Positions 45,540-53,822 are shown, numbered from the stretch's first letter. The stretch is 64,000 nucleotides of DNA from Escherichia coli (GCF_009931435.1 NZ_CP043414.1), one strand, 5' to 3'. Numbers and translations: made by a program. The notes: a model not told the origin generated them from the sequence alone.

Positions 45540-45594
45540 TGGCGGGAGTTTGTGCAGGATCCCCGGTGATTCTGCACAAACAAATGATTAAGAC

Positions 45595-46956
45595 CTACAG
45601 TTTGATTGTAATCTGAGTTCCCACAACCCAGGCGTCGTCGATTTCACTCACCCCACCGGGATCAATCAGCAACTGCACATTGGGTCGCAATGTTAACCAC
45701 GGCGTCACCACAAAACTGTAATGCAATTCTGCCGCATACTCAGCGTCTCTTACTGGCGTCCAGGCGGGATTATCATAATCATCAAGACCCTTTTTATCAT
45801 TGAGCAATTGCGCCCGTCTGGCTACTTTACTGTTTTCGTGCATTTTGCTGACGCCAAAGCCAATGTAATCCTGCCCCCGACCGGAAAATGGCCCTTTATA
45901 AATAGCGCCAATTTGCGTCTGGTAATCCATTGTCGCAGTATCCCGATCATTCATCGCCAGATGCCAGAACAGAGAAAGGCCACCACGAGGAGAACGGGGA
46001 TCAGCAGTCACTTGCTGGAGTAAGTAGATCCAGCCACCGTAACGCCCATCGTGAGTCGCCGGGGGACGTTGGCTCGTAACGTAGTCATCGCCTTCTGCAT
46101 CCTTCAGGACGTCACTGGCTTTTGCTGTGTTATACCAGGCTCCTACTTTCCAGGCACCCGGAAGTTTATTCGCACCCAGCGTTGGTGTATACCCAAATTC
46201 CATAAGGTACATATTTCCTAATCTTCCAGTATTATCCAACTGGAAACTGCCGCTTCGCGTCGCATAATTTGGGTTATACATAAACGCGCCGGTCTGCAAA
46301 TAAACTTGCGGTGTAAAATTATAACGTAACCTGGCCCCCCACTGACCAATCGGTGTGTTATACCAGACTCCCGCACCATGACCTGCCAACGAACCACAGA
46401 GGGAAAGGTTCTGGAAATAACAACCATTGTTATCGAAGTCTTCGCCAACCGGCATTAATCCTAACTTTAAATCAATCGTTTTTGCATACCATGATTGACG
46501 ATACCAGAATTGCGCGGCATGCCAGGTTTGACCCCGGCCATAGTTACTGTTTACCGTCGAGCCAATCACTGGGGCTCGAGGATCCTGAATTCTGTCGCTG
46601 GTAAGATCGCGGCCGTTACGATCGATAACAGAGACTTTAAACTCTCCATCCGTGATACCCGCAATTTTTTGCAGATCAAAATCGGCACCGATAATATACT
46701 GGTCGCTATATCGCGCCGTCCGATCCTTGTTATAACCGCCTGAAATATTCGATGTCACCATCGAGCCATATTCCAGAGTAAAATCATATCCTTTGTTTTT
46801 TAACTCACTACGCACTCCATTCCAATCTCCAGCCATATATTTTCCGGTTGAGGAAAAAGGTAACTCATTGGCTAACGAACCAAATGGGAACATCAGTATC
46901 ATCAGGAAAATATAATTTTCCCGTATAGAATGATCCATATTATTTATCCTTTGCAA
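45595..46956 (-). CDS. Outer-membrane porin, OprB-like carbohydrate-selective porin family (accessory locus gene 1), 453 aa
   Basis: ORF track; signal-peptide-like N-terminus ending SLA/NE; Gly/Tyr/Asn-rich beta-barrel-like composition; AAGGA ribosome-binding site 8-9 nt upstream. Family assignment by similarity impression, not by search. Confidence 0.55.
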   Translation of the reverse strand: MQRINNMDHSIRENYIFLMILMFPFGSLANELPFSSTGKYMAGDWNGVRSELKNKGYDFTLEYGSMVTSNISGGYNKDRTARYSDQYIIGADFDLQKIAGITDGEFKVSVIDRNGRDLTSDRIQDPRAPVIGSTVNSNYGRGQTWHAAQFWYRQSWYAKTIDLKLGLMPVGEDFDNNGCYFQNLSLCGSLAGHGAGVWYNTPIGQWGARLRYNFTPQVYLQTGAFMYNPNYATRSGSFQLDNTGRLGNMYLMEFGYTPTLGANKLPGAWKVGAWYNTAKASDVLKDAEGDDYVTSQRPPATHDGRYGGWIYLLQQVTADPRSPRGGLSLFWHLAMNDRDTATMDYQTQIGAIYKGPFSGRGQDYIGFGVSKMHENSKVARRAQLLNDKKGLDDYDNPAWTPVRDAEYAAELHYSFVVTPWLTLRPNVQLLIDPGGVSEIDDAWVVGTQITIKL

Positions 46957-47060
46957 TCCGAATATAACATTCAGAGAAGCGCTACTGGCAAATATTTCTT
47001 AATGCTGGTGAAACACAGAAATTCTCTGGCAGGCCGATCCTTTCTTCCCGGTCAGTACGG

Positions 47061-48458
47061 CTACGGCGAAAGCTCTTCCAGTGATTTTCCCTTCGTTTCA
47101 ATAGCGAACAAATAGGTAACCAGGCCGCCTATTAACGCGATGACTGCGAACACAATAAAAACAAAGCGGATCCCAAAACCAGAAACAATGAATCCCACCA
47201 GCAACGGTCCAACGGAAGAGCCAGCCCGCAACCAGGCACTGGAAAATGCCGTTCCAATCGCTCTCAGGCGAGTGGGGTATAGCTCTGCAGAGTAGAGATA
47301 AAGAGAGAAGGCAATGGTCTGGAGAATGGCATACGTCATACTACCGAAAATAAGGATTTCAATGGCAGATTTGGCTCCGAAAATACAAAGAGTCACTAAC
47401 GGGATAATGGCCAGTAAATAAGCCCAGGTATACCAGCATTTTCTTCCAATACGATCGATAAGCAGTGCACAAATTACCGACGCAAAAACTCCACAGGAGG
47501 AAGTAATCCAACCATAAGCCAGACTGGTTTCCAGTGGTAAGTGAAAAAGCGTTTTATACATGGTAGGAAACCAGGTGATCATACCATTGTTCACCGTATA
47601 AACGGTCAGCCATAGTCCCCATAACATAAACGTGCGTGATTTATAGATGCCGGAAAATAGTTCTTTTACGCCACCTGCAGGTTCCTTTTGCACAACTGCA
47701 GGATTAATCACCGGCTCAGGTAATTCCATTCCTCGCTGCAGCGCTTCTTTCTCAAACGCCGCAACGACTTTCTCAGCCTGAACATGGCGACCTTTCGCTG
47801 TTAACCAGCGTGGAGACTCAGGCATTAACCAGCGTAACGGAACCGTCAATGCCGAAGGGATAAGACCTATCAAAAACATCACTTTCCAGCCGTAAAGCGG
47901 AACAAGAAAATAGCCTACAAGACCAGCAAACATCATACCGATCGGAAAAATCACCTCGTAGAGTAAAAAAAAGCGGCCACGTTTTTTTGCTCCGATAAAT
48001 TCATTGATATAAGCGCTGGCAACCGGAACTTCTGCCCCTATTCCTAATCCTTGCAGGAAACGGATAACCAGAATCGACCATCCATTCCAGGCAAACAGGC
48101 AAGCGGCATCCATCGCGACGAACATCACAATGGTGATACGCAACACGCCAATGCGGCCAATTTTTTCTGCCAGAGAGCCAAAAAAGAGTGCGCCGCAGAG
48201 CTGCCCAACATAGCTTGCGGCAATGATCAGCCCGATGAAGGTTGGTGTTAATCCCCATTCCTGAGTGAGTTGCGGTAGCGCAAAAGCTATCGCGATAATG
48301 GTGTAAGCATCAAAGAATGTCGATAAACCCACCACTACACGAATAGCTAAAAGACGCCTGGTGACAGGGAGTCGTTCGAGCCTGGCAAGCAGCGTTGCGG
48401 GATCGCCTTCCCGCGGACTGGCAATAATACTTTCAGAAGTAATAACCTGAGTTGACAT
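47061..48458 (-). CDS. MFS transporter (metabolite/H+ symporter type) (accessory locus gene 2), about 465 aa
   Basis: ORF track 47061..48527; I prefer the internal ATG (complement 48456-48458, MSTQVITSES) because an AGGA ribosome-binding site lies 9 nt upstream; two MFS loop motifs (EKIGRIGVLR, IDRIGRKCW). Confidence 0.75.
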   Translation of the reverse strand: MSTQVITSESIIASPREGDPATLLARLERLPVTRRLLAIRVVVGLSTFFDAYTIIAIAFALPQLTQEWGLTPTFIGLIIAASYVGQLCGALFFGSLAEKIGRIGVLRITIVMFVAMDAACLFAWNGWSILVIRFLQGLGIGAEVPVASAYINEFIGAKKRGRFFLLYEVIFPIGMMFAGLVGYFLVPLYGWKVMFLIGLIPSALTVPLRWLMPESPRWLTAKGRHVQAEKVVAAFEKEALQRGMELPEPVINPAVVQKEPAGGVKELFSGIYKSRTFMLWGLWLTVYTVNNGMITWFPTMYKTLFHLPLETSLAYGWITSSCGVFASVICALLIDRIGRKCWYTWAYLLAIIPLVTLCIFGAKSAIEILIFGSMTYAILQTIAFSLYLYSAELYPTRLRAIGTAFSSAWLRAGSSVGPLLVGFIVSGFGIRFVFIVFAVIALIGGLVTYLFAIETKGKSLEELSP

Positions 48459-53610: not shown

Positions 53611-53691
53611 AATGTATATGGCAGGAGTCAATATCATCAGACTCATAGTTCACATAAAACAAACTGCAGCATCATCAACATCACTCAGGTA

Positions 53692-53736
53692 TTAAAAATC
53701 CCCAACCAGCCTGTTGGGGATAAATATGTATTTTTC
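53692..53736. terminator. Bidirectional terminator between the convergent Dcu-like gene and ssb
   Basis: TCCCCAAC-cagcct-GTTGGGGA hairpin flanked by A-run (upstream) and T-run (downstream). Confidence 0.65.
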
Positions 53737-53822
53737 AATGTCCCGAGTAGCTACCGGGCAGATATCAATCTGAGGCTGTGGCTAACGCACACTGGCGGTA
53801 ACCACCTGAACCAAAAGAAATC

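Follow-up and report, generated by a model that had tools for sequence, protein, structure and literature searches.

We analyzed a 64-kb window of an Escherichia coli genome (GCF_009931435.1, NZ_CP043414.1), the whole stretch in whose positions all coordinates are given, and focus here on the gap between yjcB and ssb. Six intact open reading frames (ORFs) occupy this gap, and the RefSeq annotation is the same in carrier strains. Two lie on the minus strand and encode an OprB porin and an MFS carrier; four on the plus strand encode a LacI-type regulator, two enzymes (DHDPS-like and FAH-like) and a Dcu carrier. An original prediction, made from the DNA sequence, had placed these six co-localised genes here and assigned them to families, and both the ORFs and the Pfam and NCBIfam matches agree with it. 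The architecture of this module is ordinary, whereas its DHDPS-like enzyme represents an unnamed, uncharacterised and ultra-conserved subfamily that bacteria share with filamentous fungi.

Genes and regulatory sites between yjcB and ssb

The genes of the interval and its two flanks are as follows.

45258–45539, plus strand: yjcB, the left flanking gene
45595–46938, minus strand: OprB-family carbohydrate-selective outer-membrane porin, 447 amino acids (aa) from the RefSeq start, with the ORF open to 46956
47061–48458, minus strand: MFS proton symporter, co-transcribed with the porin gene, 465 aa
48886–49914, plus strand: LacI-family repressor, 342 aa
50151–51080, plus strand: DHDPS/NAL-superfamily Schiff-base enzyme, 309 aa
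51352–52233, plus strand: FAH-family enzyme, an optional accessory of the module, 293 aa
52324–53610, plus strand: DcuA/DcuB-family carrier, 428 aa
53823–54359, minus strand: ssb, the right flanking gene, given for context

Among the six proteins, the Dcu carrier alone passes curated NCBIfam cut-offs (NF006927, 452.4 bits vs 369; TIGR00770, 433.7 bits vs 331), and the others are assigned at family level only. The porin matches Pfam PF04966 (E = 1.5e-91) over model positions 2–371 of 372, near its full length, is labelled 'carbohydrate porin' in carrier annotations, and has orthologues at the same position in Klebsiella and Citrobacter that are 67–75% identical. Orthologues of the MFS carrier in Dickeya, Pantoea and K. 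indica are 81–88% identical. Its top NCBIfam match, the aromatic-acid/H+ symporter (AAHS) model TIGR00895, reaches 225.3 bits against a cut-off of 418.55; the carrier was accordingly rejected as a member of this subfamily, and its MFS membership stands. The LacI protein aligns over its full length to ~17 LacI-family NCBIfam models, including RbsR, CytR, PurR and GntR, all below their equivalog cut-offs, and its orthologues, 79–86% identical, always adjoin the enzyme gene in enterobacteria.

The FAH-like protein is a PF01557 member by precomputed assignment. Its best NCBIfam match, 2,4-didehydro-3-deoxy-L-rhamnonate hydrolase, is a full-length alignment that stays under the equivalog cut-off (164 vs 500 bits), as does HpaG (154 vs 276 bits); its PDB matches reach down to 2.7e-47, the value of the best one, the HpcE/HpaG decarboxylase-isomerase. 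The protein has orthologues in Dickeya (77% identical) and Klebsiella (74%). The nearest Salmonella enterica homologue is 62% identical and belongs to a 90%-identity cluster of 895 sequences. Its gene is clustered with those of an MFS carrier, both subunits (large and small) of an aconitase-like enzyme, a LysR regulator and an alpha/beta hydrolase, in what looks like a separate uncharacterised pathway unrelated to the yjcB–ssb module.

We next consider how the six genes may be controlled. The longest inverted repeat of the region pairs 48556–48592 with 50068–50104, and its core is a 25-nt operator, GAAAACGATTGCAGAAACGTTTTCA, composed of two tandem AAACG(A/T)TT boxes. This operator has exactly two matches in the 64 kb, against a chance expectation of 0. 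The operators, promoter elements and hairpins of the interval are listed by position.

45548–45581, unstranded: hairpin between the convergent yjcB and porin genes, an inverted repeat with a 14-bp stem (−21 kcal/mol, z = −2.9)
48567–48591, minus strand: operator O1 with its two tandem AAACG(A/T)TT boxes, facing the MFS–porin unit
48649–48664, unstranded: CRP-type site TGTTAATCAGTTCACA, upstream of the MFS gene and ~62 nt beyond O1
49919–49967, plus strand: hairpin after the LacI stop codon, a terminator or insulator (−29.6 kcal/mol, z = −7.2; none of 200 shuffles folds as stably)
49998–50013, plus strand: CRP-like site TGTGATCCCTGCTGCA, centred ~61 nt before the inferred transcription start
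50031–50059, plus strand: enzyme-operon promoter, with −35 TTGACA at 50031–50036, a 17-nt spacer and −10 CAAATT at 50054–50059
50069–50093, plus strand: operator O2, directly 3′ of the −10 hexamer and facing the enzyme gene
51169–51199, plus strand: hairpin in the gap between the enzyme and FAH genes (9-bp stem, z = −3.6)
53698–53721, unstranded: bidirectional terminator hairpin between the convergent Dcu and ssb genes, a 9-bp stem followed by TTTTTAATA on the minus strand

The CRP-type site at 48649–48664 has one mismatch to TGTGA-N6-TCACA, and the site at 49998–50013, with three mismatches in its second half-site, is the weaker of the two; the distance to the respective operator, ~62 nt, is the same for both. 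When the sequences preceding the enzyme gene in 11 enterobacterial loci were aligned, four conserved blocks appeared in a fixed order: a TTTGTGA-N-CATTT CRP-like box, an invariant TTGAC (−35), GGTTCA..T (the −10 region) and the operator. All LacI-type loci fetched, those of Marinobacter and Vibrio among them, also have the operator pattern before the enzyme gene. A generic promoter and terminator scan returned no more sites than shuffled sequence, so the regulatory model rests on cross-species conservation. The arrangement suggests two CRP-dependent promoters, each of which would be repressed by the LacI protein just downstream of its −10 hexamer, with both transcription starts and binding being predictions.

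Judged by eye only, several other species in the 11-locus alignment also seem capable of forming a hairpin after the LacI gene, with a different sequence. The hairpin at 51169–51199 is a possible attenuator or partial terminator. The 271-nt gap that contains it holds no operator, and it retains no remnant of the second MFS gene that is present at this place in Dickeya and K. indica. The two hairpins at the edges of the interval are ordinary terminators of convergent genes, the left one, which has a weak U-tract, probably being bidirectional. They had been described before, and are real, at 45548–45581 and 53698–53721 rather than at 45549–45580 and 53692–53736.

The core enzyme and its modules in bacteria and fungi

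The DHDPS-like enzyme matches PF00701, the model of the DHDPS/NAL superfamily, and has the (beta/alpha)8 fold; its AlphaFold model is confident (pLDDT 95.6). Over its full length it is 83–87% identical to proteins of many Pezizomycotina, including those of Colletotrichum, Pyricularia, Aspergillus, Penicillium, Verticillium, Exophiala, Aureobasidium and Orbilia. Identities amount to 79–100% between bacteria, 80–96% between fungi and 75–87% across the kingdoms, from Proteobacteria to Pezizomycotina, and in a neighbour-joining tree the fungal proteins form one clade beside the E. coli/Providencia/Pantoea group. Among 120 sequences, the 309 columns include 126 that are invariant and 200 with a conservation of at least 95%. 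Even the closest relatives outside E. coli show saturation at synonymous sites, and omega is ~0.01–0.025, which together indicate that the conservation stems from purifying selection and not from recent transfer.

In a 50% clustering with 1.84 billion representatives, the whole family collapses into one full-length representative, and the next full-length relatives outside it are at most 39% identical; the names of relatives at 28–39% identity are uninformative. Plasmid-borne Agrobacterium/Rhizobium copies (60–66%) and a Microbacterium copy (64%) mark its outer edge. In the open-access literature we found no paper on the gene set, the enzyme family, an A. baumannii or Dickeya homologue, or a horizontal transfer involving fungi, and a description elsewhere is possible.

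To locate the active site, we used two HMMER alignments to two DapA structures and a MAFFT alignment with E. coli DapA and NanA, both exact PDB matches. Lys169 aligns with the Schiff-base lysine (DapA K161, NanA K165) and is invariant in 12 family members, in 32 distant relatives and in the 120-sequence set. The catalytic triad Tyr133-Thr44-Tyr107 (DapA numbering) is absent. Relative to DapA, Thr44 is replaced by His49, Thr45 by Ala50, Tyr133 by Phe141, Val135 by Tyr143 and Arg138 by Val146, and no tyrosine occupies the Tyr106/107 position (enzyme residues 112–114). As judged from the alignment, Tyr143, two residues past Phe141, might substitute for the missing triad tyrosine. The His/Phe/Tyr signature recurs in 20–25 of the 32 distant relatives, which points to a wider uncharacterised branch of the superfamily, and no PDB entry carries it. 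An invariant C197-H198-D199-E200 motif aligns with the hydroxyl-binding GYDE of sialate lyase, with only the D-E pair kept, and many invariant arginines lie near Lys169. The earlier label of a DapA/NAL class I aldolase therefore holds for the superfamily and the Schiff-base lysine; with the canonical triad replaced, it is too simple.

These residues also bear on the idea that the enzyme is a spare DapA, or that the locus serves a non-nutritional purpose such as detoxification or export. DapA is its best NCBIfam and PDB match, and MFS and Dcu carriers are capable of export. However, the enzyme passes no curated NCBIfam family model, DapA included (TIGR00674, 127.8 bits vs a cut-off of 206.15), and Thr44, Tyr107, Tyr133 and the aspartate-semialdehyde-binding Arg138 are all replaced. 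The gene is moreover kept by Pezizomycotina, which make lysine via the aminoadipate route. A DapA role was rejected on the failed cut-off, the loss of Arg138 and the triad, and the presence of the gene in fungi that lack that pathway. CRP control, porins and chemoreceptors favour uptake, and we regard this explanation as a whole as highly improbable.

We then analyzed the gene neighbourhoods of the enzyme. A degenerate DNA pattern for the invariant AMKNGVRN motif, searched in species-representative genomes, yielded at least 120 loci, which brought the homologous loci examined to ~130 in all; the taxonomic list is a sample. Of the 120 pattern matches listed, 119 encode a protein at least 75% identical to the enzyme. 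Hosts among these matches comprise the Acinetobacter calcoaceticus-baumannii group, Burkholderia, Paraburkholderia, Caballeronia, Cupriavidus, Ralstonia and Pseudomonas; Marinomonas, Halomonas, the Klebsiella oxytoca complex, K. indica, Raoultella, Citrobacter youngae and Serratia; and Dickeya, Pantoea, Rubrivivax, Rhodoplanes, Propionivibrio dicarboxylicus and Formivibrio citricus.

Gene order varies around the enzyme. The full E. coli order is also found in K. michiganensis and K. indica. Providencia has LacI-enzyme-FAH-Dcu; Pantoea has an MFS gene divergent from LacI-enzyme-Dcu; and Dickeya, like one metagenome contig, has an MFS gene divergent from LacI-enzyme-MFS2-FAH-Dcu. On the K. variicola chromosome, a KdgM-type porin gene is followed by LacI, divergent from the enzyme gene and an Nramp-like carrier gene, and a Telmatospirillum-like contig shows an Nramp-like carrier, a porin, a chemoreceptor, FAH and MFS, divergent from enzyme-LacI. 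Across the loci, the recurring transporters are MFS (48 loci) or else Dcu, TAXI-TRAP, TTT/Bug or Nramp-like; the regulators are LacI, a divergent LysR or IclR; the porins are OprB, KdgM, OprD-type or general; and a Cache-domain chemoreceptor occurs in some loci. FAH is found in ~15 of the loci and is lacking from the modules of Pantoea, Acinetobacter, Burkholderia and fungi; no other enzyme recurs in any of the loci examined. Because only a regulator, the enzyme and a carboxylate-type transporter (often with a porin) are constant, the functional unit is a regulator plus one enzyme plus uptake, and FAH, Dcu and the OprB porin are enterobacterial elaborations of this one-enzyme module. The two enzymes had been taken for equal partners, which does not hold: the DHDPS-like enzyme alone is universal, and FAH, Dcu and porin are optional.

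The same neighbourhoods speak to another possibility, namely that the island represents part of a non-phosphorylative route for pentonates or aldarates, in which the enzyme would be a dehydratase (cf. L-KDA dehydratase, KdgD) and FAH a 2-keto-3-deoxy-pentonate dehydratase (cf. XylX, KdaD), both leading to 2-oxoglutarate semialdehyde. No aldonate or aldarate dehydratase and no semialdehyde dehydrogenase adjoins the enzyme gene in the ~130 loci, and with no partner enzymes in any of them, a Weimberg/Dahms fragment is unlikely. In addition, the KdgD models fail (TIGR03249, 67 vs 374 bits; NF002958, 74 vs 278 bits), and the enzyme model is equidistant from all functional classes. We consider such a fragment quite improbable, in line with the original view that this is not a textbook Weimberg/Dahms or glucarate cluster.

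The fungal copies add a further comparison. All four examined are intronless, and three adjoin an MFS gene; these MFS neighbours show no detectable relation to the bacterial MFS carriers, so the enzyme alone is common to both kingdoms. A Zn2Cys6-type regulator gene is adjacent in Aspergillus and within a few kb in Colletotrichum, and the Pyricularia copy has no annotated gene within ~7 kb upstream.

Several loci carry features of their own. The citrate-fermenting anaerobe Formivibrio citricus has two enzyme copies in one locus, with FAH, MFS and LacI, and also, by sequence reading only, proteins resembling the beta subunit of Na+-translocating oxaloacetate decarboxylase and citrate synthase. 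On the K. variicola chromosome, the Nramp carrier beside the enzyme is broken into ORFs of 131 and 305 aa, and the next ORF encodes 223 aa without a Pfam match; this reflects either a decaying module variant or a frameshift in both assemblies. In ~50 high-GC loci, antisense ORFs of 300–500 aa span the enzyme gene (the longest in E. coli has 86 aa, 50724–50984). These ORFs cluster together and are almost certainly spurious, a product of GC content and DNA conservation, and annotated plasmid records separate the real divergent LysR gene from such antisense ORFs.

Boundaries and recent spread of the imported tract

The island is carried by 12 of 5,426 complete E. coli genomes (0.2%), with the flanks matched in 5,425 of them, and all 12 copies are chromosomal and 99.8–99.9% identical to the window. 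In K-12 and 5,413 other complete genomes, yjcB and ssb are adjacent; the 98-bp K-12 spacer, which holds a bidirectional terminator, is replaced by the island in the window. Presence/absence mapping thus bears out the proposed accessory status of the six genes.

Homology to K-12 breaks off at the yjcB stop codon and restarts at the ssb stop codon. The distribution of mismatches inside the two genes nevertheless places the junctions further out.

45353–45539, plus strand: foreign 3′ end of yjcB, linked to the island, with the left recombination junction just before 45353
~53890–54210, inside the 3′ part of ssb: right recombination junction, located by mismatch density against K-12

On the left, yjcB has 36 mismatches to K-12 in 45353–45531 (~20%), compared with 0–5 per 100 nt upstream. 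The linkage between this divergent 3′ end and the island is strict: identity to it is 93–100% in the 12 carriers and at most 87.7% in all 5,412 non-carriers. On the right, the 3′ part of ssb shows six synonymous-type mismatches in 53824–53883 and then 0–5 per 100 nt; the surplus of synonymous-type differences reaches ~70 nt into ssb and fades by ~54210. The imported tract is thus wider than the six-gene insert and runs from ~45353 to ~53900, ending inside yjcB and ssb, and not at the hairpins or at 45540 and 53822, where the island edges had first been placed. The SSB protein of the window is identical to that of K-12. For yjcB, a mechanically called ORF (45159–45539) opens at a TTG 99 nt before the annotated start at 45258, and the annotated start is conserved with K-12.

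Among the carriers, the island is 99.8–100% identical, whereas their flanks differ by 1.3–5% from the window and from one another and fall into at least four haplotypes. A near-identical island in divergent flanks, a foreign yjcB 3′ end and a presence of 0.2% indicate a recent import that spread by homologous recombination. The island has therefore spread recently between E. coli lineages through recombination in its flanks and is not a long resident. As the foreign yjcB end is linked to the island, the donor already had the order yjcB–island–ssb, and entry itself took place by homologous recombination. The donor is probably a related enterobacterium with this synteny. The enzyme gene has a synonymous divergence (dS) of at least 1.4 to every relative sampled outside E. 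coli, so, together with the plasmid comparison below, no sampled genome is the donor.

The window contains no tRNA, no integrase or insertion sequence (IS) ORF and no flanking direct repeat, and thus none of the hallmarks of an integrative island (an integrase or transposase, a tRNA target and direct repeats). The same absences had been noted at the outset and had been taken to mean an old island rather than a recent mobile insertion, a view that the near-identity of the island within flanks that diverge by 1–5% contradicts. Nor is the module confined to immobile DNA. The K. variicola plasmid NZ_CP056146.1, a conjugative IncFIB/IncFII plasmid, carries, at 4338–13846 of the locus analyzed, a complete seven-gene module (porin-MFS-LacI-enzyme-MFS2-FAH-Dcu) flanked by IS630 and IS5 transposases and adjoining an aromatic ring-hydroxylating dioxygenase cluster. 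This plasmid module was rejected as the donor, its DNA identity being only ~72%.

Other observations concern the surroundings of the island. For window positions 30000–45000, the best match in the 5,426 complete genomes is only 98.8% identical and most are ~96.4%, so the strain belongs to a lineage that complete genomes cover poorly; none of the 30 genomes that best match this left flank is a carrier. In the carrier MS20657 (NZ_CP082077.1), a defence island with an AbiGi-family protein, Avs4, hypothetical proteins and a site-specific integrase lies between the Dcu gene and the expected position of ssb (~53611–53822 in the window), which shows that the yjcB–ssb gap accepts more than one type of insert. 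An LrgA/LrgB/LysR trio, a further presence/absence polymorphism near the island, separates actP from yjcE in the carriers A25, DCE7 and MS20657 and is missing from the carrier 2014C-3075; window positions 35540–38000 align poorly in parts to all four.

Proposed pathway and comparison with known systems

Taken together, the regulation, the transporters and the single constant enzyme make it fairly probable that the module is inducible and catabolite-repressed, imports a 2-oxo carboxylic acid and, in one Schiff-base step, converts it to pyruvate and a small co-product. The suggestion of a self-contained, regulated catabolic module for an acidic substrate is thereby supported, and the substrate is most likely an imported 2-oxo acid. 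In this scheme, a chromosomal catabolic island without mobility genes of its own would have entered E. coli from a related enterobacterium and would form a two-promoter regulon, with the LacI repressor on a tandem operator just 3′ of each −10 hexamer and a CRP site at ~−62 making both promoters dependent on cAMP-CRP. The inducer, either the substrate or its product, would free the repressor. The substrate would pass through the OprB-type porin and then the MFS symporter, the Dcu-type carrier or both; alternatively, the Dcu carrier may exchange substrate for product. Lys169 would form a Schiff base with the 2-oxo group, and cleavage or elimination would release pyruvate and a small aldehyde or acid, to be handled by core metabolism. 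As an add-on, the FAH enzyme may feed a related compound into the lyase step or finish a beta-dicarbonyl or oxaloacetate-type product.

Some points weigh against this scheme. The CRP site of the enzyme promoter has a poor second half, the −10 hexamers are weak, and the generic search for promoters did no better than on shuffled sequence. The triad used by all characterised family members is missing, so that the chemistry is possibly not retro-aldol. In high-GC loci the neighbouring ORFs were called crudely, and a rarer second enzyme could have been overlooked there. Finally, the transporters suggest two different kinds of substrate. OprB and KdgM porins, a Sugar_tr-type MFS, a LacI regulator and the C-H-D-E motif point to a sugar acid, whereas Dcu, TAXI-TRAP and TTT carriers, together with OprD-type channels, Cache chemoreceptors and hosts that ferment dicarboxylates, point to a small di- or tricarboxylate.

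If the latter signals are the telling ones, the substrate would be a small C4–C6 oxo- or hydroxy-dicarboxylate (4-hydroxy-2-oxoglutarate or an oxaloacetate-type compound) and the enzyme a lyase or beta-decarboxylase yielding pyruvate; FAH would act as an oxaloacetate or acylpyruvate decarboxylase, tautomerase or hydrolase, and Dcu would take up the substrate, or do so in exchange for a C4 product. This is possible, though we would not bet on it. The Dcu carrier scores above its family cut-offs; TAXI-TRAP and TTT/Bug carriers, OprD-type carboxylate channels and sCache/dCache chemoreceptors accompany the enzyme in other loci, and the module occurs in the dicarboxylate and citrate fermenters Propionivibrio dicarboxylicus and Formivibrio citricus. 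Oxaloacetate decarboxylases and acylpyruvases (FAHD1, 4DBF) are among the PDB relatives of FAH, and the many invariant arginines close to Lys169 would suit such a substrate. Yet a dedicated OprB or KdgM porin is unexpected when general enterobacterial porins admit small acids, a LacI regulator and a Sugar_tr-type MFS more usually go with sugars, and the invariant C-H-D-E motif aligns with the hydroxyl-binding GYDE of sialate lyase. C4–C6 oxo- and hydroxy-dicarboxylates are not known to be plentiful as free nutrients.

The porins, the LacI regulator and the Sugar_tr-type MFS would instead fit a 2-keto-3-deoxy ulosonic or aldonic acid taken up whole (Kdo, KDN or KDG-type), which the enzyme, as an aldolase, would split into pyruvate and an aldose. 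Cleavage of such an acid needs one enzyme only, and the C197-H198-D199-E200 motif aligns with the GYDE of NAL. The activity could include that of Kdo aldolase (EC 4.1.2.23), and the family reaches, at 64% identity, into Microbacterium, from a relative of which Kdo aldolase was reportedly purified. Kdo aldolase still has no annotated gene in E. coli (PMC12199768, PMC10619137). A sugar acid would leave the Dcu, TRAP and TTT carriers, as well as the FAH enzyme, unexplained; also against it stand an aldose that Acinetobacter and Burkholderia would waste, the missing canonical aldolase triad and the lack of any specific link between the family and Kdo. We judge a sugar-acid substrate unlikely, and the identification of the enzyme with the orphan Kdo aldolase is speculative.

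A bolder form of the 2-oxo-acid scheme concerns the chemistry. The enzyme may define a new kind of Schiff-base lyase, in which His49 and Tyr143 replace the canonical Thr/Tyr proton relay, and may be the sole enzyme of a module that Proteobacteria share with Pezizomycotina and that acts on a widespread natural 2-oxo acid still lacking an assigned gene for its catabolism. We hold this view tentatively, with the balance tilted somewhat against it. If it is true, the extreme conservation would reflect an unusually constrained mechanism, and an orphan activity could find its gene, with Kdo aldolase as one candidate.

In either form, the locus would be of an ordinary kind, a repressor- and CRP-controlled uptake-and-cleavage module that gives one extra nutrient to rare E. 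coli lineages, among them human, pig and monkey isolates. The enzyme family has a far wider reach, spanning bacteria that matter in medicine and agriculture (the A. baumannii group, the Klebsiella oxytoca complex, the Burkholderia cepacia complex, Dickeya and, on plasmids, Agrobacterium) as well as most filamentous ascomycetes. Once the substrate is found, thousands of genes would be annotated together, and an orphan enzyme activity might gain its gene. A compact island with a conserved operator, the system lends itself readily to testing.

Compared with known systems, the island resembles several in part. It is not a Weimberg/Dahms or glucarate/galactarate cluster, as neither it nor the homologous loci examined contain an aldonate or aldarate dehydratase, a 2-oxoglutarate-semialdehyde dehydrogenase or a class II aldolase. 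The enzyme differs from DapA, YagE/YjhH, HOGA1, KdgD, L-KDA dehydratase and NahE/PhdJ in that the triad and Arg138 are replaced and no curated model is passed. An FAH enzyme beside a pyruvate-forming lyase recalls the LRA5/LRA6-type diketo route for L-rhamnose and L-fucose and the hydratase-aldolase pairs of meta-cleavage pathways; unlike those routes, the island has none of their dehydrogenases, lactonases or dehydratases, its FAH protein scores 164 bits against the cut-off of 500, and FAH is dispensable in most homologous modules.

As a genomic element, the island is akin to the recombination-borne cassettes at E. coli core junctions, which likewise have core-gene flanks, lack integrase, tRNA and repeats, and are exchanged with flanking core DNA. 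It differs from them in that its cargo is a small metabolic regulon and its junctions can be mapped within yjcB and ssb, and it thereby offers a clean natural case of a metabolic cassette that has passed from one E. coli lineage to another through homologous recombination in its flanks alone. In Salmonella, the ssb–soxSR region is occupied by SPI-4.

The nearest functional analogue, by the likeness of its parts, would be the sialate system (nanATEK-yhcH, NanC and NanR). The two differ in that the island has no downstream kinase or epimerase, a LacI-type instead of a GntR-type regulator, and Dcu and FAH in addition; its enzyme is ~23% identical to NanA, fails the NanA models (83 vs 281 and 62 vs 382 bits) and carries His for Ser47 and Phe for Tyr137. 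What they would have in common is the plan, a repressor-gated and CRP-dependent set of an outer-membrane channel, an MFS carrier and a DHDPS/NAL Schiff-base lyase acting on an imported 2-oxo acid, and in K. variicola the homologous enzyme gene adjoins that of a porin of the KdgM/NanC family itself.

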